Assembly: GCA_000004985.1 (NCBI GenBank)
Contig: GG738851.1
Source of the DNA: Naegleria gruberi
Lineage: Eukaryota
DNA length: 64,000 nucleotides
Direction: 5' to 3' (one strand)
This document shows, piece by piece, positions 35,978 through 57,913 of this stretch. Position 1 is the stretch's first letter, and each line of letters begins with the position of its first letter. Both the position numbers and the translations under genes were made by a program. The notes beneath the pieces were generated by a model. That model was not told the origin of the DNA and did no database searches. It worked only from the letters and a program-made list of their open reading frames with translations.

Positions 35978-38900
35978 ATGACGTCCAGAGTGTTTCCTCA
36001 ATCACAAAACACAGCTAGAGTCGCAGGAAGTGTAGTACTAAACGATGCAGAAACTTCCTCTCAATTTGGAGCAGGAACTTCTACCACTTCAAGCTCATTT
36101 GCTTCATCATTGGGTGGGAAAAGTGTTGTAAACAATGCAGGAATAAGTATTTTCTCACTGATAACAACTCTAAGACCTAAAGATACACTAGTTGGTGACG
36201 AGAATACTTACATGTTCCTAGGAATGATATTCTATCATATCTACTTGATATACAACTCTGTAATACTCTCATCACTTTCAACACCAATGATTAGAGATGA
36301 CGATACTAGAACATTGTGGGGAGTTATACCTGGTTGGATATGGAGAGCTTTGTATTTTCCAATCAATTGGGCATCTGAATTCTATCCTTACTTTCTAATT
36401 ATTTCACTATCAATAGCGTTTCTAATTTTACAATTTTCAACTTGTTTTGGAATTTATTATTGTAAATGGGCTTCAAGAAAGGGAGGAAAATTATTTGGAA
36501 GGATCAAGACATTTCTGCTGAATTCATTGTTATTCCAAAGAACTTTTACTTTATTCATCTTGTCTATTCATGCAATTTTGTTATCTCCAAATCTGGATTC
36601 CCAAAATGGAACTTTATATTATTTTCCAAGTCAATCTTTCAGCTCAGTGATACAAATAGTTTGTACCGTAATAGGATGTGTTGGAATATTGTTGAATATT
36701 GGTTTGACGGCTATTGCAACACTTTTAACTGCTGAAACGAGCCCTAAATTGAGCAAAAGAATTTGGTTTTCATTGTATTCAATTTCGCCTTTCATGTTCT
36801 TTAATTTTGTGAATCAAATTAGTTTAGTTTCAACTATTATTTGTACAGGACCTTATACCTATGTTGCTTCTATTGTGAAGATTGTAATGAACGTATTCCT
36901 GCTTATAGTAACGATGAAATCCTTACCATTCTTTAGAAAATGGGAGAATTGCTTTTATTTGGCATTGGTTAGTTTGAAAGTTTTTACTCCAATCCCAACT
37001 TTAATTTTGCAATTTCTTTCCTCGAATCAATTGAATCAACAAGAGATTGGTGGAATAATGACTGGTGTTACTTTTGCAACGGCAGTCATTTCTTTTGGAT
37101 CTGGCTTTATTATTTCTTACGTTTGGTTAGTAATTGAAATGAAATCAGTCAGAAATATGATTTCTAATAAGGAAGACAGTTCCGCAGCATTGCTTCTTCT
37201 TGAGAAATCAAAAAAGAAACAAGATAGTCTTTCACTATTCCTAAGATTTGCAAGCAATAGTGCTCCAGAAATGAAAGTGAGGGAAGGAAGCGATTTTGAC
37301 TTGGCCAAACATGCTGTAAACACACTAGTCAAACCAATTGAAAATGTTGAACTGTTAATTGTCAGTTCCTTATTTGTATCATTTGGTGGTATTCCAGATT
37401 ATGATAGTTCTCAATCATTTAGTATTGGATTGGCTCTATTACAAAAATCTCAACGAATTTCACCATCACTAGCTCAGGTATTCAATATCATGTTAAGAAA
37501 TGAAGAAATAGAATATCATGCCTTTCATGGAAATAATCTTGAAGTTTTAAGAAAACTTGTAATGGTTGAAAAGAAAGTGAAATCATTGTCTAGATGCCAC
37601 AAGTCATTCTTTAAAGAATTATTGAATGATAAACCATCTATTGGTAAATTAGAACAGATTAATAGTGCCAGTTGTTCAATTTATAACGAATGCGACACAA
37701 TTTATGATAATTTACTGGCTTCTAATAGATCCAACAAGACTCTGTTGAGATCGTATGCTTCCTATTTGGAAAAATACAAGTGGGAAATCCAGTTAGCAAA
37801 ACAATTATTTGAGGAAGCTCAAGACAATGATGAAGATAAGAATAAGCAACCGTTTAAGGCATACGAATCCTCATTCCATAAAGGGAACACCTCTAGGTTT
37901 AGTATAGATTCACAAAGAGCTAATATGGATGGTTGGGATTCAGTAAGTGTTGCTGGTGTAGAAGAGAATGACGAAGAAAGAAAAGATCATGTTTTGAGAA
38001 TGGCAATCAACTCTCCTATGTCAACAATTGTATATTCCACATTGTTTTTCCTATTCTGTGCTCTCTCAGTACTAACTATTTGTATCGTTGCTCCCGTTTC
38101 ACTTGTATTTTCTCAGAGTATCAATGAGAGAATGACCATGCAAGAGAAGGTATGCCTAATGACCTCAGTTCCATACAAATTATTAGCTCAGATTCAAGCA
38201 CTTCAAACAGAATATAATTTGAGAGGAAATAATACTGAAAAGCTACTTAATTCTACCATTGATTATACTAATAACTTGTTGGATACTGTTAAAACAGTGG
38301 TATCGGCTGGAGACAATAATATGCTAATGCCAGAAGTTGCCAGAGAATATTTGAAAAATCAATACGAACTTCAACTTCCAATTACAAATGATTCATTAAT
38401 TGGAAAGGAAATTCCTGCATATACAGCCACCAACGCCTCTATTCAATTCTATTTATCTGCTATGTACACTCATGGAAAGACCTTGTTAAATGAATTTAAT
38501 GCTATGGACGGACTGGTTTCGAATACCGATGAGAATTATGCTTTCTTATTTATTTTCTACAATAGAATTCCAATGACTTTAGCTTTCAATAGCTTGTGCT
38601 CTAAATTTGTTGAAGAAAGTGTATCTTCAATTGAAACAAATTTTGAACGCTTGTGGATAATCACAGTTTCCACTCTGGTAACTTATTTGAGTATTTCACT
38701 AATTTTCTTTACAATATTATTCACACACTCGAGAAGACTTGTTGTTGAGCTCAAAGAAATATTTAGAAGAATAACCAAAGATGAAATAGGGAAAGTTTAT
38801 CACAATTTCGAAAAGAAAATAGATGATTCTATTAGCTCTTCAAATAACCTTTTGAAAATGAGCAATATCCTAATGATTGGAAGTTTCCTCTTTGTAATCA

Positions 38901-40804
38901 TCATCTGCCTATGTTCCTTACTAGTCATTGTAGAGCTCAACAGCAACACCAAACAAAGTGCTCAATCCATGAATATTGTCGGTTCAATCAATGCAGTTTC
39001 ATTAAGAACTGCAAGAACCAACTTTAGATTACTCTGGTATATTGATAGGATAAAGTATTTAACCTTGGAACCTTCATTTGTTAACCAAGAAAATAAGCAA
39101 GATTTACTAGATTTGAGAACTTATTGGAATTATGTTGTGGTAGGCGATGAATCAACTTCTTACACATCTGCCATTTATGGAAAATATGATGATGTTGATT
39201 ATATATTATCTGATCTTTGTAATGATACTATTTCAATGGCTGATCCTTGTCACAGTTTAACTGCTGCCTTGACTGATTACATTACAAAAGCTCTTGATTA
39301 CAATGAAGTGTTCTATTACCAAAAAAAGAGTCAGACATTTATGGTAAATGAATATTTTGGGAAGATATTCTATGTTACGCAGACAATTACTTCCAATTTA
39401 CAAACTTTAATCTCTGCTCTTGTCACTCATGAAAAGGTTTCAAGTGTTGGGATAACAGCTTCTATGATTAGCTTATGTTTTATTTCCGCAATTTTATATG
39501 CTGTCATATGTTATTCATCCTTGAATAGGTATTGGAAAGAAAGAGCTTGTTTGAGAATGATGTTGAATTATATCAATTTAGATCTCATTGAAAGCAATTT
39601 GATATTGAGAGAATATGTCATGTCAAATGTTGTTCCTTCCTCAAAGATTTCCTCTAAAATAGTGCCATCTTTTGAAAGTGAGAAAGAAAAGGATGAAAAG
39701 ATTGAAATGGTCAAGACCATATTGAATGGAGGCGTAGATTCTGCAATTATTTGTGATAAGGATGGAAATATTACAATTTTCAATAATTCTGCTGAGGAAA
39801 TGTTTGGCTATTCCAGATCACAAGTTTTAGGTTTACCAATTCAAACTCTATTCACTTCTGAATATTCTGAGAGAATCATGAAATTGGTTTCTACTGGTGA
39901 ATCGCATGATTCATTCGAAGCAATGTCTCAGAGACGAAACAAGACTCATTTCTCTTCAAAGGTTTCAGTTTCCATTTCCATTCATGAAAAGAAACAAATT
40001 TTGATTGTCTTTATTCGTGATATTACTCCAGAAAAGAAACAGAGTTTATTAATTGCTGAGGAAAAGAAGAAGAGTGAAGATTTACTTTTGAATATTTTGC
40101 CAATGTCCATGGCTTCAAAATTGAAGAATGGTGAGGAGCATTTATATGAAAAAGTGAATGATATTACTGTTTTCTTTAGTGATATGGTTGGATTTACTGC
40201 ATGGAGTTCAAAACTGCAACCTAGTGAACTAGTTCATATCCTAAACTCGATTGTTACTGGATTTGATAAGCTGACTGAAATTCACTTGATTGATAAGATT
40301 AAAACTATTGGAGATGCCTATTTTTGTGTAAGTGGATTACACTCATGTAAATCTTCCGATCACCCAGAAAGAATGTTAAAGTTTGCCATTGAAATTATGT
40401 CCTTTTTAAAGAATATCAACACATCAAATCAAACATTAATTAATGTGAGAATTGGCATGCACACAGGCGATGCTGTTGGAGGAGTCATTGGATTTAAAAA
40501 GTTTGCCTACGATCTGTGGGGTGATACCATCAATACTGCCTCTCGTATGGAATCAACATCACTTCCAGGTAGAATTCAAATTTCCAGATCTACCTATGGA
40601 AGAGTTTATGACCTATTCGAATTTGAAGAGAGATTAATTGAAGTGAAAGGAAAAGGAGAATGTCAGACTTATCTACTGAAAGAGAAACATCATGAGAATC
40701 CAATAGCTCTTAATAACATGGCACAAGTGGAAGATAATGATCATTTAGAAGTTTCACAAGGACCATTTTCAAGCCATAAAGAAGATGAGCAACAGCAACA
40801 GTAA
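35978..40804 (+). CDS. Multi-pass membrane, PAS-domain-containing class III adenylyl cyclase (1608 aa)
   Basis: Single ORF with ATG at 35978. The N-terminal polytopic domain has about 8 TM helices. Further TM pairs bracket two exoplasmic loops of about 150-180 aa. The PAS domain is ILNGGVDSAIICDKDGNITIFNNSAEEMFGYSRSQVLGLPIQTLF. The cyclase core carries FSDMVGFT, KIKTIGDAYFCVSGL, IGMHTGD, AYDLWGDTINTASRMES and PGRIQIS. The Lys in KIKTIGD and the Asp in DLWG are the adenine-specifying residues, so this is predicted to be an adenylyl cyclase. Confidence 0.85.
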   Translation: MTSRVFPQSQNTARVAGSVVLNDAETSSQFGAGTSTTSSSFASSLGGKSVVNNAGISIFSLITTLRPKDTLVGDENTYMFLGMIFYHIYLIYNSVILSSLSTPMIRDDDTRTLWGVIPGWIWRALYFPINWASEFYPYFLIISLSIAFLILQFSTCFGIYYCKWASRKGGKLFGRIKTFLLNSLLFQRTFTLFILSIHAILLSPNLDSQNGTLYYFPSQSFSSVIQIVCTVIGCVGILLNIGLTAIATLLTAETSPKLSKRIWFSLYSISPFMFFNFVNQISLVSTIICTGPYTYVASIVKIVMNVFLLIVTMKSLPFFRKWENCFYLALVSLKVFTPIPTLILQFLSSNQLNQQEIGGIMTGVTFATAVISFGSGFIISYVWLVIEMKSVRNMISNKEDSSAALLLLEKSKKKQDSLSLFLRFASNSAPEMKVREGSDFDLAKHAVNTLVKPIENVELLIVSSLFVSFGGIPDYDSSQSFSIGLALLQKSQRISPSLAQVFNIMLRNEEIEYHAFHGNNLEVLRKLVMVEKKVKSLSRCHKSFFKELLNDKPSIGKLEQINSASCSIYNECDTIYDNLLASNRSNKTLLRSYASYLEKYKWEIQLAKQLFEEAQDNDEDKNKQPFKAYESSFHKGNTSRFSIDSQRANMDGWDSVSVAGVEENDEERKDHVLRMAINSPMSTIVYSTLFFLFCALSVLTICIVAPVSLVFSQSINERMTMQEKVCLMTSVPYKLLAQIQALQTEYNLRGNNTEKLLNSTIDYTNNLLDTVKTVVSAGDNNMLMPEVAREYLKNQYELQLPITNDSLIGKEIPAYTATNASIQFYLSAMYTHGKTLLNEFNAMDGLVSNTDENYAFLFIFYNRIPMTLAFNSLCSKFVEESVSSIETNFERLWIITVSTLVTYLSISLIFFTILFTHSRRLVVELKEIFRRITKDEIGKVYHNFEKKIDDSISSSNNLLKMSNILMIGSFLFVIIICLCSLLVIVELNSNTKQSAQSMNIVGSINAVSLRTARTNFRLLWYIDRIKYLTLEPSFVNQENKQDLLDLRTYWNYVVVGDESTSYTSAIYGKYDDVDYILSDLCNDTISMADPCHSLTAALTDYITKALDYNEVFYYQKKSQTFMVNEYFGKIFYVTQTITSNLQTLISALVTHEKVSSVGITASMISLCFISAILYAVICYSSLNRYWKERACLRMMLNYINLDLIESNLILREYVMSNVVPSSKISSKIVPSFESEKEKDEKIEMVKTILNGGVDSAIICDKDGNITIFNNSAEEMFGYSRSQVLGLPIQTLFTSEYSERIMKLVSTGESHDSFEAMSQRRNKTHFSSKVSVSISIHEKKQILIVFIRDITPEKKQSLLIAEEKKKSEDLLLNILPMSMASKLKNGEEHLYEKVNDITVFFSDMVGFTAWSSKLQPSELVHILNSIVTGFDKLTEIHLIDKIKTIGDAYFCVSGLHSCKSSDHPERMLKFAIEIMSFLKNINTSNQTLINVRIGMHTGDAVGGVIGFKKFAYDLWGDTINTASRMESTSLPGRIQISRSTYGRVYDLFEFEERLIEVKGKGECQTYLLKEKHHENPIALNNMAQVEDNDHLEVSQGPFSSHKEDEQQQQ

Positions 40805-40989: not shown

Positions 40990-43989
40990 ATGTCCCAAGC
41001 AAATTCATTGAGCAATGAAGGTGGTGGTATCAGCAAAGATGTTAATCCACCTGTTGAAGATTTTCCGTCTGCCGAGGTGGAAGAGGAAGAATTTTACAAT
41101 TCATCATTTGATGATAGAAAACAAGTGAGTGGGAGAATTGAAGAACAACAACAACATGATGACGATAATCCAATTTTGATGACTATTCCATCATCAAATT
41201 ATGGATATTCCATCAATGATAATTCCGTTTCGCAACTACACCAACAACAACAAGGAGAAGAACAACAATTTAATTCTTCTTCGGCTACCATCCATGCCAA
41301 TAGTTGGAAAGAGAAAATTCAAGCTATGAGAGGAGGTGGTTGGAGAGAGTATTTCAATATTGTTTCGATTTGTTCCTTTCTGACTGTAACATTGTGTTTC
41401 GCTGCTGTTTCGTTTATTTTCTTGATTTATCCATTTGTGTATGTGAGAGATTTTTCACACACTTTGGTAGAAAGTTCACAAATCAAATTGCAACCATACT
41501 ATCCACTCGGTTATAAACCAAAAGGATATGTACCAAAGTTTTCTCAAGCAACCACCAAATTGACAGTTCCAGGAAATGCAAGATTCATAATGTTATCTTT
41601 TGTAGCAAATGCATCAGTGGAAGCTGTCGTTTTCAGAAATACTCTCACTTACTATAATCAATTCATTGATGCAACAGCTTTGAGTGCCTACTATACGAAT
41701 CAGACACAATTCATATTCGATAATCCTTTGGAAAGAAGCTTTTTTGTAATTTCAGAAAATTACTATGCAACCAGATTCTTTGCAACAAAGATTATGAATC
41801 ATACGAGTTTGGAGTTTGATAATTCTCCATTGAATAATGAAAACAAAACTGTGCTGTACATTGTTTGGAGAAATGAAAATTTAACTCCTCTCGAAAATAC
41901 CATTGTAATCGATTATTGGTACAGACTTGAATATGATGATTATAGGGAGACTACAAGTTTCACATTTGCCATGATTTCATTTGGTGCTTTTGTTCTTGCA
42001 GCTAGTTGTGTCTTGTTAAATACTCCAACAGTTTCTGGAATTTTCTCAATAGTTTACAATTTCTTGAGAAATTTACTATCATTCAAAAAACCTCTACCTG
42101 AAAATGGAGAGTGGAGTATTGATAATACTTTAGCACGAGGAGCTGACATTATTTTCCAAGATTTGTCATTTGTCTCATTCACAGATAAGGTAATTTTATA
42201 TCCAACAACTGGAATTTTGAAAGCTGGCAAGTTAACAGCAGTTATGGGTCAATCTGGTTCTTCAAAATCAACTTTTTGTAATGTTCTTTGTGGAAGAGCT
42301 TCCCATGGTATTCAGAAAGGAAAAGTCCTAATCAATGGAAATTCATTCTCTGGAAATACTAACAATTTAGTTGGATTTGTTACACAAGATGACATTATGT
42401 CTCCTCATTTAACTGTCAAGGAAACTTTGGAGTTTTCATGTAAGATTAGAAAGAATAAGAAGAATTCTGAAAAGGTCGAAGGTGTAATGCAAAAGTTAGG
42501 AATTACAAAAGTTCAAAATTCACAAACTTCAGTAATCAGTGGAGGTGAAAAAAGAAGAACATCAATTGGTATTGAAATGGTTGCAGACACACCAATTTAT
42601 ATTCTAGATGAACCTAGTTCTGGACTCGATTCAGAATCTGCTCTCTCCCTTTGTAAAACCCTTAGAGAAATAGCAGAAGAAAACAACTCGAATATTATTT
42701 GTGTTATCCATCAACCTTCATATGAAATATTGGAACAATTTCATGATATAATGCTGTTCAGGGAAGGTAGATTACTATTCCACAGTCCTGTACCAACTGT
42801 AATCCAATCACTCAAAGAGCATATCCCTTCTCATATTATTCGTAGCAATCCTGCTGATGAGATTTTGAGAACTCTTTCAACAGATTCTGTTGAAATTGTT
42901 AATTCCATTATCAAAAATACTGATCCAGCCATTCATTCCATTTCGAGAAAGCTCGAATTAGATTGGAAAGATATGAAAACTTCACCATTTTACATTCATT
43001 TCTATGCATGTTTTGTGAGAGCTGTCAAACAATTCTACAGAGATTGGAGAAATTTGATATTTGAAATTCTCATTTCCTTTGTTGTTGGTTTGCTTATTGG
43101 AGTATTATTTAATGGTCTTGAATTTATTGGAAGTGTTTCAAGTTCAAAATATAGCAAATGTCCAATAGAAATCAGAGCTGGTTGCATGCTTCCTCAATCG
43201 GATACGATTGCTCCATACTCATCTTTCCTCGTTTTGGCCATTGCATTGATATCTATAATGAGAGGTTTGAGAGTTTTTGGATTTGAAATTGAGAATTTCA
43301 AAAGAGAATCTCATGTAGGTCTCAATTCTTGGATGTACTTTTTATCGAAGGATTTGATTTCAATTTTTGTGATTGCTGTCATTTCTTTCAGTACTACATT
43401 TGGCATGTTATCTGCATTACCACATACTAACTTTTTCATTCTCTATGCCATTGTATTTCTAACAATTATGGCTGGTTTTCCAATTGGTTATACATTGTCA
43501 TTCTTCTTTGATCCACAAATAGCTCAATTGGCAGCTGCCTTAGTAGTTGTAGTATTTTACAGTTTTGGAGGAAATAATCCAACCATTCCTGAAATTGAAA
43601 AGCTTTCTCCAGTTCTTGCCTACAGTCACGTTATCACCTATTTTAGATATATTAGAGGTTTAATTTATATGGAAGAACTTATTACAAGAAGAGAAGATAA
43701 CGACATTGCATCAGCTCTTAAGGTGAATGGATATGAAATTGAAGCAATTTCATTCTACTTTTATGCTCTCTTCTTTTGGATTGTAGTTTTCAGGTATATG
43801 GCAGTATATTGTATGTGGGCTTGGAAACCTCGTTCTCTGTTCAGTAAGATTAATTTCCTATCAAGGAGATTGACTGGACGATTCTCTACCTGGTTTTCAA
43901 ATAAGATTGTTCAACCATTGAGAATGAAAATGAAAAGAAATAAGTATAAGGAAGTTGATAACTCTGAAGTAAATCCTTTCAAGCAATAA
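40990..43989 (+). CDS. ABCG-type half transporter (NBD-TMD) with ~350-aa N-terminal extension
   Basis: Walker A is MGQSGSSKST, the signature is VISGGEKRRTSIG and Walker B is IYILDEPSSGLD. These are followed by six TM helices of the ABC2 type. The N-terminal extension is low-complexity (QQQQ, SS) with two hydrophobic helices. Confidence 0.85.
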   Translation: MSQANSLSNEGGGISKDVNPPVEDFPSAEVEEEEFYNSSFDDRKQVSGRIEEQQQHDDDNPILMTIPSSNYGYSINDNSVSQLHQQQQGEEQQFNSSSATIHANSWKEKIQAMRGGGWREYFNIVSICSFLTVTLCFAAVSFIFLIYPFVYVRDFSHTLVESSQIKLQPYYPLGYKPKGYVPKFSQATTKLTVPGNARFIMLSFVANASVEAVVFRNTLTYYNQFIDATALSAYYTNQTQFIFDNPLERSFFVISENYYATRFFATKIMNHTSLEFDNSPLNNENKTVLYIVWRNENLTPLENTIVIDYWYRLEYDDYRETTSFTFAMISFGAFVLAASCVLLNTPTVSGIFSIVYNFLRNLLSFKKPLPENGEWSIDNTLARGADIIFQDLSFVSFTDKVILYPTTGILKAGKLTAVMGQSGSSKSTFCNVLCGRASHGIQKGKVLINGNSFSGNTNNLVGFVTQDDIMSPHLTVKETLEFSCKIRKNKKNSEKVEGVMQKLGITKVQNSQTSVISGGEKRRTSIGIEMVADTPIYILDEPSSGLDSESALSLCKTLREIAEENNSNIICVIHQPSYEILEQFHDIMLFREGRLLFHSPVPTVIQSLKEHIPSHIIRSNPADEILRTLSTDSVEIVNSIIKNTDPAIHSISRKLELDWKDMKTSPFYIHFYACFVRAVKQFYRDWRNLIFEILISFVVGLLIGVLFNGLEFIGSVSSSKYSKCPIEIRAGCMLPQSDTIAPYSSFLVLAIALISIMRGLRVFGFEIENFKRESHVGLNSWMYFLSKDLISIFVIAVISFSTTFGMLSALPHTNFFILYAIVFLTIMAGFPIGYTLSFFFDPQIAQLAAALVVVVFYSFGGNNPTIPEIEKLSPVLAYSHVITYFRYIRGLIYMEELITRREDNDIASALKVNGYEIEAISFYFYALFFWIVVFRYMAVYCMWAWKPRSLFSKINFLSRRLTGRFSTWFSNKIVQPLRMKMKRNKYKEVDNSEVNPFKQ

Positions 43990-44040: not shown

Positions 44041-46485
44041 TCATTTATTGTTGAAAAATTTAAAGAAATTCCAAGATTTGTTGTCTTTACAGTTTTTGTT
44101 AATGTATGTAATTAAATGTTGTTTACCCTTTTCCGTTGCATACTTTTGAACGAATTCTATGGATGCCCCTTTTTTAATGAGATTTTGAGCCCACTCGGCA
44201 CTGCCATTAATATCAGCCACAGTCACCAATGCACTGCTCAACACATTACTTGATAAATTGCAATTATTGAATATCCACTCAAAAATAATAGTATTTCTAT
44301 TCTCAATCGCAATCTCTAAAGGATAACCACAATCAATGCCTTGTTCTTCGTGAAAATGTGGATAGTTATTCGAATACCATTGAATTGCTGGAAGATATTC
44401 AAGGACACAAGCTCTATGAAGAGGACCATCAATATAGTACATGTCTTTTGTTAAGGATATTTTCTGGCCATCTATGTTAATAGTTTCTAATTTTGGAGTT
44501 GACTTCAAGGCATCAATTATTTTTCCATTTTCCTCAATAATAGCAATAAAATACAAGTATTTTAAATTATTTGATAATACTGAATTAGTATTTTTCACAT
44601 TAATATCTTCAAAATATTCCAATAAATTTGAATAATCAACATTGTCCAGTACGTCCAATAACTCTAAAACAGAAAATGATTTTACAGAAAATTCTTTAGC
44701 AATTCTGGTTAAATGTTCTGGTTCTTCTGATTTTTGTTGGTTGTAAGTAGTTGTGGCAATTTCAAACATTTGGTTATCATCCAATAGAGATGCAAAAGTC
44801 ACTTGTCTGATATAATTCTGTTGATATTGTTTTCTACACCAATTGATTCCAATTAGTGTTGTAGTAGAAGGAGCATTTTCAATCTTCAACTGATTCCTTA
44901 TTGAATCCAAGTCTATTGAAGGTCCATCACTAAAGGCAATAAATATAGTCTTTAAATGAGAGGGGAAATAGTTATTTGCTACCTGCAAACATGAATCTAG
45001 TAATGCTGGTTTCGAACAATCAATCAATAATATCATTGCTTTTGCATTTCTCATGTATGTTTCAAAAATAATTTTAAATCTTTCTTGTTCTGCTAAAAAC
45101 CAGCATATAAACTTATGATCAAAGCAACTAACTAACCTAAAATCAACACCAATCAGTGAGTGAGAATTCCTATAAATATTTAACGATTTTGTAATGTTTG
45201 TATGTGCCGGTGATCCATAGAATGTTGCCAAACATAAATGGTACACAGGTAATTCAATTGGCTTTTCGATAATGGTCTGATTTGCTTGTTGAATTAATTG
45301 TTCAATAGAGGGACGATCATTTGGTTGCAAGCTCATCATTTTCAATATTAGCTCAATGAGATGATCAGAATATTTCATACGTTGATATTTTACAAAATAA
45401 TCCTTCAATAACTTTGGATGTTTACACATTGAATTACATAGAGTTGATAAATCACGTGTCATTAAGTAATATAACGTGACACCTAATGCAAAAATGTCAG
45501 ATTGAGTAGAATATGGTTGTTTGATATCCAATATTTCATAATCAATAATTTCAGGTGCTAAATATTTAAATGTCCCACTCAATTGTGAAATTTCTGTTGA
45601 ACTATTGGTGTTAGTTTTTGCAAATCCAAAATCACTCAAACAAACTTGAATATTATCTTGTTTGGTATTAATGGATTTGATTAAAATGTTTGCAGGTTTA
45701 ATATCTTTGTGTATGATATTAAATTTTTGAATATGTTTTAATGCATTTCCCATTTGTTCTATAATTAGTAATATCATTTTTTCAGATGGAATGTTATTTG
45801 GATTTTTAATGAAATAATCGAATAAGTTTCCAAATTCTAAACAATCCATTTCAATACATAAAAAAGATTGATTGTTGCTAATGAAAGCAGTATGCACACG
45901 AATAATATTCTCATGTGATACCTTAACTGTTTGTATAGCCTCATGTAATGCTTGATTCATGTCAAATTCCAAAGATGGATATATTACTTTGACAGCTGCA
46001 ATACTTTGATTTTTTCTTTTCACTTGATAAACAATTCCGAATGCTCCACTTCCTAACTCGTTTATAATTGTTGAGTATCTATTTAATAATTCTTCTTTTA
46101 CATTTTTGCTATTATTATTCAAACTATTAATATTATTATTCAAACTATTAATATTATTATTCAAAGTATTATTATTATTAATATTAATATTATTTGAAGT
46201 ATTAGTAGTAGTTGTTGTATTTTCAAATTTCTTTATATTCTTGATCAAATTACAAATAGAATGAGCATGAATTGGTTTAATACCTAATTGAATAAGAGCC
46301 TGTTCATCGGAATAGAGAAGTGTAAAGCCTGTACATTCTTGTTCAATTAGTACTTATTGAAGTTATTAACTTGGATGAATAATTGTGAAAAACATACTGT
46401 CAACTACACTCTTGGGGCAACCATTCCGAAGTAGCCAATTACCCACCCGTTCTGTTGACCAAGAGGTAAAGTCATTGTCGTCCAT
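44041..46485 (-). CDS. Ser/Thr protein kinase fused to a degenerate Rab-like pseudo-GTPase domain and C-terminal ANK-like region; 2 exons
   Basis: The main exon (44041..46283) has a poly-Asn tract and a kinase domain (LGSGAFGIVYQV...AAVKVI, HKDIKPANILI, DFGFAK, APE). Next is a Rab-like block, HLCLATFYGSPAHTN...SLIGVDFRL...ICWFLAEQERF...MILLIDCS...IFIAFSD, aligning to Rab G1, IGVDF, WDTAGQERF and NKxD with the P-loop and NKxD degenerate. The ORF-table start at 46248 is a TTG. A putative 5' exon (46398..46485) encodes MDDNDFTSWSTERVGNWLLRNGCPKSVVD with a GTATGT donor. A 114-nt intron ends at acceptor AATTAG at 46284-46285. Confidence 0.7.
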
Positions 46486-50282: not shown

Positions 50283-51812
50283 ATGTCTCGAAAAGCCGTT
50301 GAGGATGTCATGAGAATTGAGGTAGAGATTATGGACGCCACCAGAGGCGTTTCAAATGCTCGACCTTCATCCTCTCATCACTCTACTAAAAACACCAACA
50401 ACAATACGAACAACAACAATAATCAACCTACAACAACAAGCTCTTCAAATCAACAAGCACAACAACAAACCGTTAATAATATTAATAATAATACTAACAA
50501 ACCTAAGGTTGTTCCTCCAAGGCTTGATCTGCAGCAACCTAGTATTACAAATCATCCGATTAATAGCAAATTTAATCAGAAATCACCTGTTCGTTCCTCA
50601 CGATCCTACACAAACTCTAATGAAATATATCCACCAATTGCTTCTAATGTAGATATTGTAACAAAAAAGTATACATATAATAGAAATACTAGTTCTACAT
50701 CACTTTTTGATAAAACACAAGCTCAATCAGCTCGTTTAAAAACTAAGGACACATTCAAGTCACCAAGATCAACGTATCAACAACAATCATCAAGACAACA
50801 AACAACCCAAAAAACTTCTCCTTTGAAATCTAGGTCCCCTCCAAAGGAAAGAAAACAATCATCTAGTATTGTATACTCACCACCAAAATCCAGAGATTCT
50901 TCAAGATCTCGGCCTCATTCAAGTCCTCCAGGAAGAAGATCAACAACTCCTAAACCAGTTAGAGATCATCCAAGCCATATAATCAATACAAATGTTCCTC
51001 TTTTCACACCTGGACCAGGAGCATATGAGGTTGATAAATCAAGCAAATACCTAAGACCATCCACTGCTATCTCAATGTCCAGAAATTCAAGATTCAAGGA
51101 AACCAAATTTGAAACACCTAGTCCTCATACCTATAATCCAGAAAAACCTTTGAAGAGGATGCCTTCTCCAAGATTTGGGTCGAGTAAGCGACCTGATTCT
51201 GCCAAGTCTGTCTCACCAGGCCCAATTTATGATGTTAATGATAATGCTCTCTCTAAAGTCAAAAACACACCTAGGTTCTCATTCCCATTATCTCCAAGAG
51301 ATTTGGATGTAGAAAATAGAACACCATCTCCAGGGACTTACTCACCGAATTATTCGGCAACAATGAGAAAGTCTGTAACTGTTGTCTTTCCAAAATCTCC
51401 AAAACAAGAAAGGACAAAATCAACAACACCTGGACCTGGAATTTATGATGTGCCAAGTGGGAACAAACAAAAGAAAGAACCAGCTTTTTCATTTGCAAAA
51501 TCTGAAAGACATTCTGACAAAAAGTCGGTGGTTGATAACCAATATGATGTTGCTTGGTCGTCGTTTTCACCCAAAGGCGTTTCAAAGTTTGGATCAACAA
51601 AACGTTTTTCATCACAGAAAAAGAATGATGTTCCTTTCCACCAAAGTCAGACAGAATGGAAAAAGACTCAGGCGGGTAAGTTTGGTAAGGACAGAAGGGC
51701 ATTAAATGATATTAACTCATCAAAATTAACTCCTGGGCCAGGATATTATCAACCTAATTATACAGTAACTCTTCCTTCATCCTCTAAACCAGTGCTGTAT
51801 CTGACAGGATAA
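50283..51812 (+). CDS. Sperm-tail PG-rich repeat (STPGR / SHIPPO-repeat, ODF3-like) protein, Pro/Ser-rich, 509 aa
   Basis: ATG at 50283. It carries five or more copies of the [ST]PGPG.Y motif: FTPGPGAYEV, SPGPIYDV, TPSPGTYSPNY, TPGPGIYDVPS, TPGPGYYQPNY. The N-terminal region has poly-N/Q low complexity. Confidence 0.65.
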   Translation: MSRKAVEDVMRIEVEIMDATRGVSNARPSSSHHSTKNTNNNTNNNNNQPTTTSSSNQQAQQQTVNNINNNTNKPKVVPPRLDLQQPSITNHPINSKFNQKSPVRSSRSYTNSNEIYPPIASNVDIVTKKYTYNRNTSSTSLFDKTQAQSARLKTKDTFKSPRSTYQQQSSRQQTTQKTSPLKSRSPPKERKQSSSIVYSPPKSRDSSRSRPHSSPPGRRSTTPKPVRDHPSHIINTNVPLFTPGPGAYEVDKSSKYLRPSTAISMSRNSRFKETKFETPSPHTYNPEKPLKRMPSPRFGSSKRPDSAKSVSPGPIYDVNDNALSKVKNTPRFSFPLSPRDLDVENRTPSPGTYSPNYSATMRKSVTVVFPKSPKQERTKSTTPGPGIYDVPSGNKQKKEPAFSFAKSERHSDKKSVVDNQYDVAWSSFSPKGVSKFGSTKRFSSQKKNDVPFHQSQTEWKKTQAGKFGKDRRALNDINSSKLTPGPGYYQPNYTVTLPSSSKPVLYLTG

Positions 51813-51895: not shown

Positions 51896-53458
51896 TTAGT
51901 TTTGTTGCTTATAGATATCAGATGTGTCTCTCAACCAAAAAACATCATGAGTATCTACAGAGGTTTTGTAGAGTATTGCGTCTTGTCCTTGTGTAAGATT
52001 TGGTTTATAAACTCCTCTAAAGGCAACTGACATGTTATCACAAATTATGATATCTCCTTGCCTCCATTTATGTCTGAAAATTGGACCATTATCTAAATGA
52101 TTAATAAGACATTGATTGAATTGTTTACAACATGAACAACCCATTGTCTTAATCTTTGTTTCAGGCAAATTAATAGTATTGTTAATATCTGAAGGTGGTA
52201 ATTCACAAGTTTGACCAGAATTACACTCATCTGAGGATACCAAAAACCCTGAAAGAAGGCCAGTGTGCAAATACAAACTTTTCTTGGTTGTTACAGGGTG
52301 TTTTCTAACCAAAGGTTGAATAGCCGTACTTGTTGGTCCTTTGACAATACTGAAAACTTTGCCAGTCTTTTCCTTGACCTTGTCTTCCATTCTTTCATAT
52401 GCCAGTTGTAGGTCAGTAAACAAAATTTCCTCTTCCTTATTACAGAAAGCTGCATTCCAAACTGTAATAGGAGTAGGATGAACCTCATGACGATATGACC
52501 CATCACAATTCCAATAAAAGAAATTGCCTGCAGCAAATGTTGGTTTGTCAATGTTATAAGTTGTCACATTTGGTGGGTTATTAACAAAGGAAGAAGGAGA
52601 CATTGGCATTGGAGAAAAGGCAGAATCTGATTTCATTGGAGAGTATGGTGTTTGATATTGCATTTGATTTTGATTTGGCATTTGATTTTGGTAAGGTTGA
52701 ACGCTTTGGGAAGATGGTGAGTAACTTTGATAATTAGAAGTGAATGAGGATTGGAATGAAGAACCATAGTTTTGATTTTGGTAAGAAGGAGGCGAGTTAA
52801 ACTTTTGAGGAGAATTGTACATATTTTGTTGTGGAAGTTGTTGTGGGAGTTGTTGTGGTATTTGATATGGTGAATATTGTTGCATTTGAGTGTTACTATT
52901 TGGAGGTTGAGGAGAAATATTAGAAGGTTGAGGAGAAACAGGGCAAGCTGACATTAATGCACATTTCGATAACACTCTTTGATTTGCAAGAGAATATGAT
53001 GATGAAACTACTTTCCAAATATCAGGATGTCCAGGAATAATAGTGTCCAGCTCATCATTCCAAATTTTCTCATACTGATTCACAGGATATGGATATCTAC
53101 AAGTTTCTCCAAAAAGTTTTTCACAAAATTGTGTCTGTTCTTTTGGTGAAAGTGGTTTCTGACATCTGAAAAGCAGTAAATGGTGTTCAACCAAAGCTCT
53201 TCTAATTTCAATTATTTCATTATCATTCAAATTAGCACCGCCACAAGTAATATCAACATTCAAAATCTCTCTTCCGAATGGTAATGCTTGTGGATAATTT
53301 GAAGATATTATACTACTAGGATTTGAATTACAGCAACCAGAACCACTAGGAGTAGTACCAGGTGAGCCGTATAATTTTCTATATTGAATTCTACTCTTAC
53401 CATCTTGTTTGTTAAAGATGGATGAAAGTGAACAAAAGCACTGTCCAAGGCAAGGCAT
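51896..53458 (-). CDS. TauD/TfdA-family (2-oxoglutarate/Fe(II) dioxygenase fold) protein lacking both iron-ligand histidines; contains long Q/P/S-rich insert
   Basis: 520 aa with ATG at 53456-53458. GREILNVDITCGGANLNDNEIIEIRRALVEHHLLLFRCQKPLSPKEQTQFCEKLFGE resembles the TauD N-terminus. WNCDGSY...TPITVWNAAF...ILFTDLQLAYERM aligns to TauD WHTDVTF...GGDTLW...AYEAL, placing Asn at the first iron-ligand His (H to N). FRHKWRQGDIIICDNMSVAFRG aligns to YRHEWQPGDLVIWDNRATMHRA, placing Phe at the second iron-ligand His (H to F). Confidence 0.55.
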   Translation of the reverse strand: MPCLGQCFCSLSSIFNKQDGKSRIQYRKLYGSPGTTPSGSGCCNSNPSSIISSNYPQALPFGREILNVDITCGGANLNDNEIIEIRRALVEHHLLLFRCQKPLSPKEQTQFCEKLFGETCRYPYPVNQYEKIWNDELDTIIPGHPDIWKVVSSSYSLANQRVLSKCALMSACPVSPQPSNISPQPPNSNTQMQQYSPYQIPQQLPQQLPQQNMYNSPQKFNSPPSYQNQNYGSSFQSSFTSNYQSYSPSSQSVQPYQNQMPNQNQMQYQTPYSPMKSDSAFSPMPMSPSSFVNNPPNVTTYNIDKPTFAAGNFFYWNCDGSYRHEVHPTPITVWNAAFCNKEEEILFTDLQLAYERMEDKVKEKTGKVFSIVKGPTSTAIQPLVRKHPVTTKKSLYLHTGLLSGFLVSSDECNSGQTCELPPSDINNTINLPETKIKTMGCSCCKQFNQCLINHLDNGPIFRHKWRQGDIIICDNMSVAFRGVYKPNLTQGQDAILYKTSVDTHDVFWLRDTSDIYKQQN

Positions 53459-54219: not shown

Positions 54220-55809
54220 TTATTCTTCTCTAATAATTAAATCTTCTCCATCATCATCTTCATCATCACCCAAGTCAATAACAATTCCAGAATTTTCAGA
54301 ATTTGAGGCAGTTTCATTAACGGCAGGAGCCTTTGTGGTATTGGTGGAAAACATTTGATTGGTAATGTAGGATTGAGAGGTATCCTTCATATCAACTTTA
54401 AGTGATGGTAAGAAGTAAATAGCCAACATTATACAGTAAAAATTCAATAATGGGAAAACACCTAAATATTGAACTGCATTATCACTAGTGTTCAAAATTA
54501 AGAATGAGAACATGTTAGCACCCAAAACAACTAAAACTAAGAATGTTAAAATAAAGAAATATTTGAATCTAACGGAGGATTGGTTAGTGTTAGAATAAGA
54601 GATAATATTCATAGCCAATTTGTCCTTCAATTCTTGATTCAATGGTTGAGTATTGTTCAAATTCTCAGCTAATTGAATAAAATCATTACCACCCAAAGTC
54701 TTGAAAATTTGATAAAAGATGTAAAGCAACATTAATCCACCCAAACCAATTACACCAATTCTAATAATACCAAATAATGGGGCATCAATCAAGTAACTAT
54801 ACATTAATCTATCACTAAATGTTTCATATCTTTCAAATAATAAACTAACAGTCAAACAACACCAGAATAATAATGTAAAGATTGACTTCCAAATATAAAA
54901 GTTTACAGTACGAAGCTTTGGATGGGTGTTTGCTGATGCTGTAATTACCATCAAAAATAATAAAAAGAAACTAATAAATGTAGATTGGAAGATAATATTT
55001 AAAAATGGTAAAATCCAATCATTTGCTAACCATTCACCAATAAATAAAGGATTATTGAATAAAATTAATGAAATTAATAAAAATAAAATCCATTTTTGTT
55101 CAGTCTTGGCATATCTGAATGTTTGATATTTAAGAAGAATGAAAGAATAGAAAATGAAAATGATAATACTAATAGCTGCATATAAATATCTCATAACAGA
55201 TTCAAATGTAGTAAAATCAGACCTTATAGTTTCCAATCTATAGAATAATGTATCACTTCTTAATAATGAAGAAACATCCAAATTTTCAATTTGAACTTTG
55301 ATTCTATATGTTGGATATGAAATATATCTTTCACGATAGACAATCACTGGAGCACAGAAATAACTTTTTCCATTATAATCAGCACTTGTACCACATTGTA
55401 ATGCTCTTTGAATTGTAAATTTTTCAGAAACAATAGGATGGAAAGTAGTATCATCATTACTACCTTCAATAGATAAAATATTTAACTTGAGATCCTTCTT
55501 GTTCAATCCACTCACAAAATTTTCGTTTTCTCTAAAAAGTAATGAAATTGTCACTTCTTGATTTGATTTAACTAATCTTGATGTTTGAATAGTAAATTGA
55601 TCTTGGCCTTTTAAAATTTTAGAATAATCATCGGCAGTTGTTATTACTTTGTGTTCAATATGTTGTTTAACTGTTGGAGCAAAGAATAAAATACCAACAC
55701 TTCCGAACACTGACAAGAAGAAGAAGATGAATGTTAAAACGATAGACCAACTAGGTAATGTATCAATCAGTACACTATAATTTGGAGGTGGTGCTTTTTC
55801 GTTTGCCAT
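54220..55809 (-). CDS. Wntless/TMEM181-like multipass membrane protein (N-terminal TM, ~200-aa lumenal domain, 7-8 TM core, acidic C-tail)
   Basis: 529 aa with ATG at 55807-55809. The first TM is WSIVLTFIFFFLSVFGSVGILFF. A lumenal domain follows, then a cluster of seven or more hydrophobic helices. The C-terminus is GDDEDDDGEDLIIREE. The topology resembles the Wntless/TMEM181 family; the call rests on architecture, not strong motif identity. Confidence 0.45.
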   Translation of the reverse strand: MANEKAPPPNYSVLIDTLPSWSIVLTFIFFFLSVFGSVGILFFAPTVKQHIEHKVITTADDYSKILKGQDQFTIQTSRLVKSNQEVTISLLFRENENFVSGLNKKDLKLNILSIEGSNDDTTFHPIVSEKFTIQRALQCGTSADYNGKSYFCAPVIVYRERYISYPTYRIKVQIENLDVSSLLRSDTLFYRLETIRSDFTTFESVMRYLYAAISIIIFIFYSFILLKYQTFRYAKTEQKWILFLLISLILFNNPLFIGEWLANDWILPFLNIIFQSTFISFFLLFLMVITASANTHPKLRTVNFYIWKSIFTLLFWCCLTVSLLFERYETFSDRLMYSYLIDAPLFGIIRIGVIGLGGLMLLYIFYQIFKTLGGNDFIQLAENLNNTQPLNQELKDKLAMNIISYSNTNQSSVRFKYFFILTFLVLVVLGANMFSFLILNTSDNAVQYLGVFPLLNFYCIMLAIYFLPSLKVDMKDTSQSYITNQMFSTNTTKAPAVNETASNSENSGIVIDLGDDEDDDGEDLIIREE

Positions 55810-55963: not shown

Positions 55964-57913
55964 TTACTTTTCCTTGAATTCAGCATCGTTTGGTGATTGA
56001 GTGTTTGGTTGTTGTTGAGTTTGTCTAGAATTGGCTTGTTCCTTGTAGTGTTGTTCAGCCAACTTAGCTTGAGTTTGCTTCAAAGCATCCAAAGAAGTCT
56101 TGAGTTGATCCAAGTTATCAGCTTGCATAGCTTCACGAACAGCTCTAACTTCATTTTCAGCCTTAGTCTTCAAATCAGCAGCGAGCTTTGAACCCAAATC
56201 CTTGATGTGTTGTTCAGCCAAGTGAACAGTAGTATCAGCTTCATTCTTAGCATCAATCAAACTCTTTCTCTTAGCATCTTCTTCAGCGAACTTTTCAGCT
56301 TCATCTTGCATTCTCTTGATGTCAGCATCAGTCAAACCACCAGATGATTGAATAGTAATTTGTTGTTCCTTTCCTGAAGCCTTATCAACAGCACTGACGT
56401 TCAAAATACCGTTAGCATCAATATCGAAAGTAACTTCAATTTGTGGAACACCTCTTGGAGCTGGTGGAACACCAACCAAATCGAATTGACCTAACAATTT
56501 GTTATAAGCAGCAATTTCTCTTTCACCTTGGAAGATCTTAATACCAACTTGAGTTTGGTTATCAGCAGCAGTGGAGAAGATTTGAGACTTCTTGGTTGGA
56601 ATAGTAGTATTACGATTAATCATTCTACTGAAAACACCACCCAAAGTTTCAATACCCAAAGACAATGGAGTAACATCGAGCAAGACAATACCATCAACAT
56701 CACCTCTCAAAACACCACCTTGAATAGCAGCACCAAGAGCAACAACTTCATCAGGGTTAACATTCTTTGATGGCTTTCTTCCGAAGAATTCAGAAACCAA
56801 AGTTTGAACACGAGGCATACGAGTCATACCACCGACAAGAACGACTTCATTGATATCCTTCAAAGTAATACCAGCATCCTTCAAACACTTCTTACATGGT
56901 TCAATAGTACGATTAATCAAATCAGCACACATTTGTTCGAATTTAGATCTAGTCAAATCCATGAGCAAGTTCTTTGGTCCGGAAGCATCAGCACAGATGA
57001 AAGGCAAGTTAATTTCAGATGATTGAGCAGATGACAATTCAATCTTAGCCTTTTCAGCAGCTTCTCTGACACGTTGGAGAGACATTGGATCCTTTGACAA
57101 ATCAACACCTTCCTTTGCCTTGAAATCAGCAATAATCCATTCAACAATCTTGTGATCGAAATCTTCACCACCCAAGAAAGTATCACCATTGGTAGCCTTA
57201 ACTTCAAAGACACCATCTTGAATTTCAAGAATAGAAACGTCGAAAGTACCACCACCCAAATCGTAGACAGCAATGATACCGTGCTTTGATGAATCCAAAC
57301 CATAAGCAAGAGCAGCAGCAGTTGGTTCGTTGATAATTCTTTCAACAGTAAGTCCGGAAATTTGACCAGCATCCTTGGTAGCTTGTCTTTGAGAATCGTT
57401 AAAGTAAGCTGGAACAGTAATGATGGCTTGAGTAATCTTTTCACCTAAATATTGTTCAGCAGTTTCCTTCATCTTTTGCAAAATAAAAGCACCAACTTGG
57501 GATGGTGACAAATCCTTTCCACCAGCTCTAACCCAAGCATCTCCATTTGGTCCACGAATAATATCGTATGGGACAATTTCCATATCACGTTTAGTCATTG
57601 GATCATCGAAACGACGACCAATCAATCTCTTAATAGCAGTGAGTGTATTCTTTGGGTTTGTAACAGCTTGTCTCTTAGCCAAAGCACCTACAAGCAAGTT
57701 ACCATCTTTATCGAAAGCAACAACTGATGGAGTGGTTCTAGCACCAATATCGTTTTCAATAACACGAGCAGACTTGTTAGATTCCATAACAGCAACACAA
57801 CTGTTAGTAGTACCCAAGTCAATACCAATGATCTTGTTTCTTTGTTGTTGTTGAGTAAGACCCATCATTTGGGATTTCTTGATGTTTCGCAGTAATTTGT
57901 TTCCTCTGAACAT
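55964..57913 (-). CDS. HSPA9: Mitochondrial Hsp70 (DnaK-type; HSPA9/SSC1 ortholog)
   Basis: 649 aa with ATG at 57911-57913. An N-terminal presequence is followed by [29 protein letters not shown] and [16 protein letters not shown]. The C-terminal lid ends with a Q/N-rich tail. Confidence 0.95.

Follow-up and report, generated by a model that had tools for sequence, protein, structure and literature searches.

The 64,000-nucleotide stretch of Naegleria gruberi contig GG738851.1 analyzed here (the window; NCBI GenBank assembly GCA_000004985.1) encodes, at positions 51896-53458 on the minus strand, a protein that has kept the fold of taurine dioxygenase TauD and lost the residues with which TauD binds iron and 2-oxoglutarate (2OG). 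The protein is very likely functional and devoid of Fe(II)/2OG oxygenase activity, and the fuller description, of a functional, Naegleria-specific TauD/TfdA-fold protein that is unable to act as an Fe(II)/2OG dioxygenase, is likely as well. The predicted loss of Fe(II)/2OG catalysis is well supported, because both His ligands of the metal and both 2OG anchors are replaced, the replacements occur as fixed changes in each of three Naegleria genomes, and purifying selection on the gene is strong. Loss of essential residues and purifying selection, which together define a pseudoenzyme, are both found here, and the absence of activity is predicted from them.

The gene is a single-exon, uninterrupted open reading frame (ORF) of 520 codons plus a stop, and it translates to a protein with 100% identity to N. 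gruberi XP_002681194.1 (EFC48450.1; UniProt D2V430), which the database labels "taurine dioxygenase." Full-length orthologs occur in Naegleria lovaniensis (521 amino acids [aa]) and Naegleria fowleri (522 aa), with ~65% identity to the N. gruberi protein in the multiple alignment and 60-61% by BLASTP. All three genes are single-exon and collinear, with uninterrupted frames of 520-522 codons. A fourth Naegleria sequence, a 371-aa fragment with 78-82% identity, was found in a soil sequence catalogue. Positions of the gene, its features and its upstream neighbors are collected in Table 1.

Table 1. Features of the TauD-like gene and the two genes upstream of it (window coordinates)
Feature	Coordinates	Strand	Basis or remarks
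Whole coding sequence, 520 aa + stop	51896..53458	-	ORF listing, NCBI identity, collinear full-length orthologs
N-terminal Cys motif MPCLGQCFCS, aa 1-10	53429..53458	-	C3, C7, C9 invariant in four Naegleria sequences; pLDDT <50
N-terminal half of TauD fold, aa 21-169	52952..53398	-	phmmer matches to TauD residues 11-74; hhalign; pLDDT 88-97 over most
S/Q/P/N/Y-rich uncharged disordered insert, aa 170-298 (disorder prediction to 311)	52565..52951	-	Composition, pLDDT, absent from relatives
Invariant motif PYSPMK (PYSP(L)MK) within the divergent insert, aa 271-276	52631..52648	-	Unchanged in all four Naegleria sequences
Longest invariant run TTYNIDKPTFAAGNFFYWNCDG, aa 299-320, holding the degenerate HxD	52499..52564	-	22/22 residues identical, three species
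N317-C318-D319, former HxD	52502..52510	-	His to Asn (codon AAT), Asp kept
I345 at TauD Thr126 (GGDT motif; here EEEI)	52424..52426	-	hhalign, hmmalign
Cys-rich insert and helix, aa 409-452 (C412, C418, C441, C443, C444, C450)	52103..52234	-	Naegleria-specific, highly conserved
F480 (codon TTT) at TauD His255	52019..52021	-	phmmer vs 3pvj, MAFFT, hhalign, hmmalign
A494-I-L-Y-K498; A494 at Arg266, K498 at Arg270	51965..51979	-	hhalign, hmmalign
Wntless-like/TMEM181 membrane protein	54220-55809	-	Upstream of TauD-like gene
Hsp70	55964-57913	-	Upstream of TauD-like gene
pLDDT, predicted local distance difference test (AlphaFold2).

A TauD/TfdA fold without the taurine-binding residues

At the level of the fold, the protein belongs to the TauD/TfdA family (PF02668), with homology far beyond chance. 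A HMMER comparison with the Pfam TauD family, the check proposed in an earlier note made from the sequence alone, gave 42.2 bits (E = 1.2e-10), where the gathering score is 27, and phmmer against PDB sequences matched TauD, AtsK and TfdA-type enzymes as three collinear pieces. When a profile of the four Naegleria sequences was aligned by hhalign with one of Escherichia coli TauD and 23 relatives, the probability was 100% (E = 5e-40 over 250 aligned columns); the E. coli TauD reference sequence was confirmed to be identical to PDB 1gqw_A. An AlphaFold2 model, for which an alignment of 27 sequences was used, has a pLDDT of >90 in the fold regions, and the top 50 Foldseek matches of this model in the PDB are all TauD, AtsK, PlaO1, AAD, RdpA or SfaA. 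The best of these (TauD, AtsK, PlaO1 and AAD) have target-normalized template modeling (TM) scores of 0.72-0.79, with E values of 1e-14 to 1e-11; over the list as a whole, TM is ~0.67-0.79 for full-length alignments and 0.53-0.56 for three partial ones.

With E. coli TauD (PDB 1GQW/1OS7), AtsK, PlaO1 and AAD/RdpA, the protein shares the conserved blocks in the same order: the N-terminal beta-alpha unit, the W-x-x-D-G strand, LF..L..AYE, HP(V)TG, W..GD...DN and the C-terminal strand. The blocks cited by the earlier note for its TauD alignment are indeed present (LFTDLQLAYERM against LWTSGIAAYEAL, and KWRQGDIIICDN against RWQPNDIAIWDN). Overall identity to TauD is only ~10-14%. The N-terminal half comprises strand 1 (aa 25-33), a 25-aa variable loop, a block running from LPFGREI to HPDIWKVV, and a new helix at aa 155-169.

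Membership in the family does not extend to the taurine dioxygenases. The NCBIfam equivalog for taurine dioxygenase (NF007104) scores 34.3 bits, below its cut-off of 313, and the taurine-binding positions of TauD are not kept, with H70 replaced by Y122, Y73 by P125, N95 by F314 and R270 by K498 in both hhalign and hmmalign. The "taurine dioxygenase" annotation of XP_002681194.1 is therefore very unlikely to be right.

Loss of the iron- and 2-oxoglutarate-binding residues

Ligand columns were placed by four independent alignments, namely, phmmer against PDB TauD, MAFFT with 24 relatives, hhalign, and hmmalign to a hidden Markov model (HMM) built without the Naegleria sequences, and residues were counted over 58 non-Naegleria relatives. 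The functional roles of the TauD residues are those we take from established TauD structural work, and only their positions were verified here, by alignment. Asn317, in the motif WNCDGSY, aligns with the Fe ligand His99, which is His in 55 of 56 relatives, and Phe480, in SVAFRG, aligns with the Fe ligand His255 (His in 52/54). The third Fe ligand, Asp101, is retained as Asp319 (54 of 56 relatives have Asp and 2 have Glu). In place of the HxD/E...H triad of two histidines and one carboxylate, all four alignments thus read N317-x-D319...F480.

The 2OG site has changed as well. Ile345 aligns with the 2OG ligand Thr126 (Thr in 54/58 relatives), and Ala494 aligns with Arg266, the anchor of the 2OG C5-carboxylate (Arg in 46/53), a position that is Thr in N. 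fowleri and N. lovaniensis. Four residues further on, Lys498 aligns with Arg270, which binds the sulfonate or substrate and is Arg in 52 of 53 relatives. The N317 and F480 replacements recur in the N. fowleri and N. lovaniensis orthologs, with the codons AAT and TTT in all three genomes; the ligand losses are therefore not sequencing errors. The soil fragment likewise carries N317 (WNCDG) and ends before the position of F480.

The earlier note had reported both histidine replacements (HxD to NxD, and the second His to Phe), and these proved correct in every profile, multiple-sequence and structure-based comparison; neither phmmer, MAFFT, hhalign nor hmmalign placed a His at either ligand position. 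Its prediction of a dioxygenase fold that binds no iron and is non-catalytic is supported by the sequence comparisons and strengthened by the loss of both 2OG anchors and by fixation throughout the genus. Sporadic single-ligand variants also occur among metagenomic relatives (P0063 reads QxD, and P0040 and P0058 have Arg and Gly, respectively, in place of His255), none of which has the full set of Naegleria losses. Partial degeneration of the triad is thus found elsewhere in the TauD/TfdA family.

Purifying selection on the former active site

The ratio of nonsynonymous to synonymous substitution rates (dN/dS) was estimated by the Nei-Gojobori method (NG86) between N. fowleri and N. lovaniensis, for which dS is 0.43 and unsaturated. 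It is 0.085 overall and 0.048 in the fold regions, and falls to 0.024 in aa 299-405, the core that surrounds the former active site. The degenerate HxD motif lies in the longest invariant run of the protein; in a second long run, aa 425-456, 31 of 32 residues are invariant in the three species. Low dN/dS and an invariant active-site strand argue that this is a functional protein and not a decaying gene: the gene is under strong purifying selection, and the former active-site region is still important.

The lost catalytic residues and the long low-complexity stretch that interrupts the domain are what one might expect of a decaying pseudogene or of a faulty gene model, for example, one in which an unspliced intron is read as a Q/P-rich stretch. 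However, the frames are uninterrupted and collinear in three species, dN/dS is low across the gene and only 0.16 even within the Q/P-rich insert, and this insert keeps its frame, length and composition as well as an invariant motif. The fourth, partial sequence from soil has the same WNCDG. Frame conservation and dN/dS effectively exclude the intron and pseudogene explanations, whose probability we consider negligible.

Constraint of this kind could also mean that the protein is still an oxygenase, with an unconventional metal site (e.g., Asn317 and Asp319 together with another residue) and a different cosubstrate. Asp319, the WxxDG strand and the DN motif that precedes the second ligand are fully conserved, and constraint within the protein is greatest on the strand of the former active site. 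Variant triads are generally known among 2OG oxygenases, the halogenases having HxA/G...H. AspH has two His (abstract of PMC13168262). Yet Phe is unable to ligate a metal, the Thr and Arg that hold 2OG have become Ile and Ala/Thr, and no conserved His lies nearby to compensate, since Cys takes the place of H327 in N. fowleri and N. lovaniensis and H324 is 7 residues farther along the strand than N317. All known active variants keep both histidines, whereas here both are gone. We therefore regard a surviving oxygenase activity as highly improbable and favor a fold that is maintained for something other than Fe(II)/2OG chemistry.

Naegleria-specific insertions

In addition to the substitutions, the Naegleria protein differs from TauD in an N-terminal extension, a disordered insert of 142 aa before the HxD strand and a Cys-rich insert of 45 aa. 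The earlier note had described the first insert as a stretch of about 140 aa, rich in Q, P, S, N and Y, that lies between domains and is possibly prion-like. The insert is real and of almost that length (residues 170-311; S 18%, Q 18%, P 17%, N 11%, Y 8%, with 5 charged residues), and it is predicted to be disordered (pLDDT of 34-46, below 50 over 171-311). It does not separate two domains, however, but is a loop within a single double-stranded beta-helix domain, directly before the former HxD strand at approximately TauD residues 85-96. All 24 of the nearest relatives lack it in the MAFFT alignment. In the three Naegleria species, its length is 142, 145 and 147 aa and its composition is similar, while the orthologous inserts are only 35-38% identical to that of N. 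gruberi.

The prion-like character holds only in part. Domains of this type are disordered, Q/N-rich and poor in charge, span at least 60 aa and contain few prolines. At 142 aa, the insert is uncharged, rich in Tyr and predicted to be disordered, and N+Q make up 29% of its residues; against this stands its proline content (17% in N. gruberi, 12-14% in the orthologs). Proline disfavors the formation of amyloid prions according to prion-propensity scales, and a true amyloid-type prion domain is therefore less likely. In our judgment the insert is a weak prion candidate and would be described more fairly as a flexible, multivalent interaction region similar to those of FUS and EWS. Within it, the short motif PYSPMK may represent a linear motif or a proline-directed phosphosite. 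An apparent PPxY motif was rejected as not conserved, being PPSY in N. gruberi and the soil fragment and SPQY in N. fowleri and N. lovaniensis.

The Cys-rich insert and the N-terminal Cys motif, neither of which had been mentioned in the earlier note, are smaller and conserved. The former leaves the fold directly after the strand equivalent to TauD 201-214, is missing from the short relatives in the MAFFT alignment and has a dN/dS of 0.007, lower than any other part of the protein. AlphaFold2 gives a pLDDT of <50 to aa 415-434 and predicts aa 441-456 to be helical, as part of a canonical TauD helix. At the N terminus, the columns M1, P2, C3, L4, G5, C7, C9 and S10 are invariant, and from this conservation we infer that C3, C7 and C9 are a candidate site of S-acylation.

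Such conservation of cysteines raises the alternative that the Cys-rich insert (C412, C418, C441, C443, C444, C450 and H454) has brought a new catalytic or redox activity, such as Zn, Fe-S or thiol chemistry, to the vicinity of the old pocket. The insert is specific to Naegleria, its six cysteines are conserved, the second long invariant run falls largely within it, and it leaves the fold after a strand that in TauD lines the substrate pocket (F206). No match to a known metal-binding or catalytic motif was found, however, aa 415-434 are modeled with low confidence and aa 441-456 are placed in the canonical helix, and a protein-binding surface would explain the high conservation equally well. 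We consider Cys-based chemistry very unlikely.

Distribution and origin

Only 61 matches at E <1e-3 came from an exhaustive HMMER scan that covered 1.84 billion representative proteins. The Naegleria sequences have E values of <1e-189 and the next match has 1e-18, with nothing between. Below this gap, the nearest detectable relatives are short TauD/TfdA proteins of 250-280 aa with an intact triad from metagenomes and metagenome-assembled genomes (MAGs), among them P0005, P0008, P0010 and MEM6720314.1 from Bacteroidota, together with a few eukaryotic TauD-like proteins such as Saccoglossus XP_002736252.1 and CAK9018658.1 from the dinoflagellate Durusdinium. They match the Naegleria protein with E values of 1e-18 to 1e-7 and 30-38% identity over the matched stretches, and have in common with it motifs such as ALVEHHLLLFR, PTPI(S/T)V and HPLV(R/K)KHPVTG. 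Unlike the Naegleria protein, all of these named relatives have an H-x-D/E...H triad, almost all have the Arg, and none has the Q/P-rich insert. One further match, P0035, was dismissed as a spurious match of repeated words. No Naegleria paralog with an intact triad is present among the named matches of the 61, a search that did not cover Naegleria proteomes exhaustively.

Neighbor-joining over 240 HMM match columns with 200 bootstraps did not place the long Naegleria branch (at least 1.5 substitutions per site) and did not decide between transfer from bacteria and an old eukaryotic TauD-like gene: the best sister group was recovered in 23 of the 200 replicates (~12%), and 85 replicates had no defined sister. 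A scan of GTDB genomes with P0005, the nearest intact relative, was uninformative and found only genes of alphaproteobacterial MAGs at 30-35% identity. A group of eukaryotic TauD-like proteins with an intact triad (P0017 from Saccoglossus, P0046 from Durusdinium, P0026, P0034 and P0037) has the LH(T/L)G(L/M) strand in common with the Naegleria protein, as well as an insertion where the latter has its Cys-rich insert; kinship with this group is without bootstrap support in the neighbor-joining tree.

Possible roles of the Naegleria protein

Non-catalytic double-stranded beta-helix proteins are known from other families of 2OG oxygenases, including JARID2 and Epe1 among the JmjC proteins and the second, C-terminal beta-helix domain of Tpa1/OGFOD1. 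They follow the same pattern, in which an oxygenase fold is kept under selection after loss of the Fe(II) ligands and is reused for binding or scaffolding. Being JmjC and prolyl-hydroxylase-like proteins and not TauD/TfdA proteins, they are related to the Naegleria protein at the level of the fold class only. Our literature searches found no description of a pseudoenzyme within the TauD/TfdA family; the Naegleria protein, if the reading given here is true, would be the first described.

A comparable role in binding or scaffolding is a tentative suggestion that we consider less likely than not, and less probable than the loss of activity itself. We speculate that the beta-helix pocket now serves to bind a small ligand or a protein partner and no longer for catalysis, and that the pocket and the new insert together form a binding surface. 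The disordered S/Q/P/Y loop of ~140 aa, with its PYSPMK motif, could give multivalent or regulated interactions, while the N-terminal Cys3/7/9 motif might tether the protein to a membrane through S-acylation.

Several points weigh against this picture or against a complete loss of binding in the pocket. Asp319 and Lys498 are retained. Asn is a weak metal ligand, and some binding of a metal or an anion is conceivable. N. gruberi proteins often contain low-complexity inserts, so the Q/P-rich insert need not have a specific function. The proposed role, the S-acylation and the function of the motif are all read from conservation. Literature searches on the accessions, on FDP41_009646 and on a TauD-family pseudoenzyme found no report, and the matches for Naegleria with taurine dioxygenase or TauD were unrelated.

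A still more specific proposal would join these elements. The dead iron pocket and the Cys-rich insert might form a novel module for sensing a ligand or metal or for binding a protein, which would be coupled to a process specific to Naegleria, perhaps the amoeba-to-flagellate program, by membrane anchoring through the Cys motif and by phase separation of the S/Q/P/Y loop. The latter is suggested because of the conserved flagellar-gene neighbors described below. In this complete form, the proposal is unlikely.

Whatever the role, the protein adds a clear, selection-supported example of a pseudoenzyme to the TauD/TfdA branch of the 2OG oxygenases. The sequence is already public, though misannotated, and the finding opens no long-standing question; correcting the annotation bears on reconstructions of metabolism in Naegleria species, among them the pathogen N. 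fowleri. As it is confined to Naegleria and strongly conserved in N. fowleri, the protein could serve as a lineage-specific marker or as a handle on Naegleria-specific biology.

Genomic neighborhood

Because the host is a eukaryote, the neighborhood of the gene has little functional weight. The TauD-like gene and the convergent gene beside it, which encodes a SHIPPO (sperm-tail PG-rich repeat) protein (50283-51812, plus strand; Pfam E = 8e-12), form a conserved tight pair. Their stop codons are 83 bp apart in N. gruberi and 81-83 bp apart in N. fowleri and N. lovaniensis, where the SHIPPO genes (L001 7653-9149 and L003 7648-9116) have the same arrangement. At its N terminus (50283-50700, plus strand), the N. 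gruberi SHIPPO protein has a low-complexity run of its own, rich in N, Q, T and S (NNNTNNNNNQPTTTSSSNQQAQQQ...).

Further neighbors in the window are a 1608-aa protein with PAS and adenylate/guanylate cyclase domains, an ABC transporter and a protein kinase (listed at 35978-40804 [+], 40990-43989 [+] and 44041-46248 [-]). Like the Wntless-like and Hsp70 genes of Table 1, these genes are of ordinary eukaryotic kinds and show no obvious connection with the TauD-like gene. In N. fowleri and N. lovaniensis, genes of the cilium/flagellum-associated families TSNAXIP1_N and FSIP1 (L001 1584-4957; L003 12008-12733) lie within 6 kb. Together with SHIPPO, three families of flagellar type are found near the TauD-like gene in those species, an association that may be due to chance.

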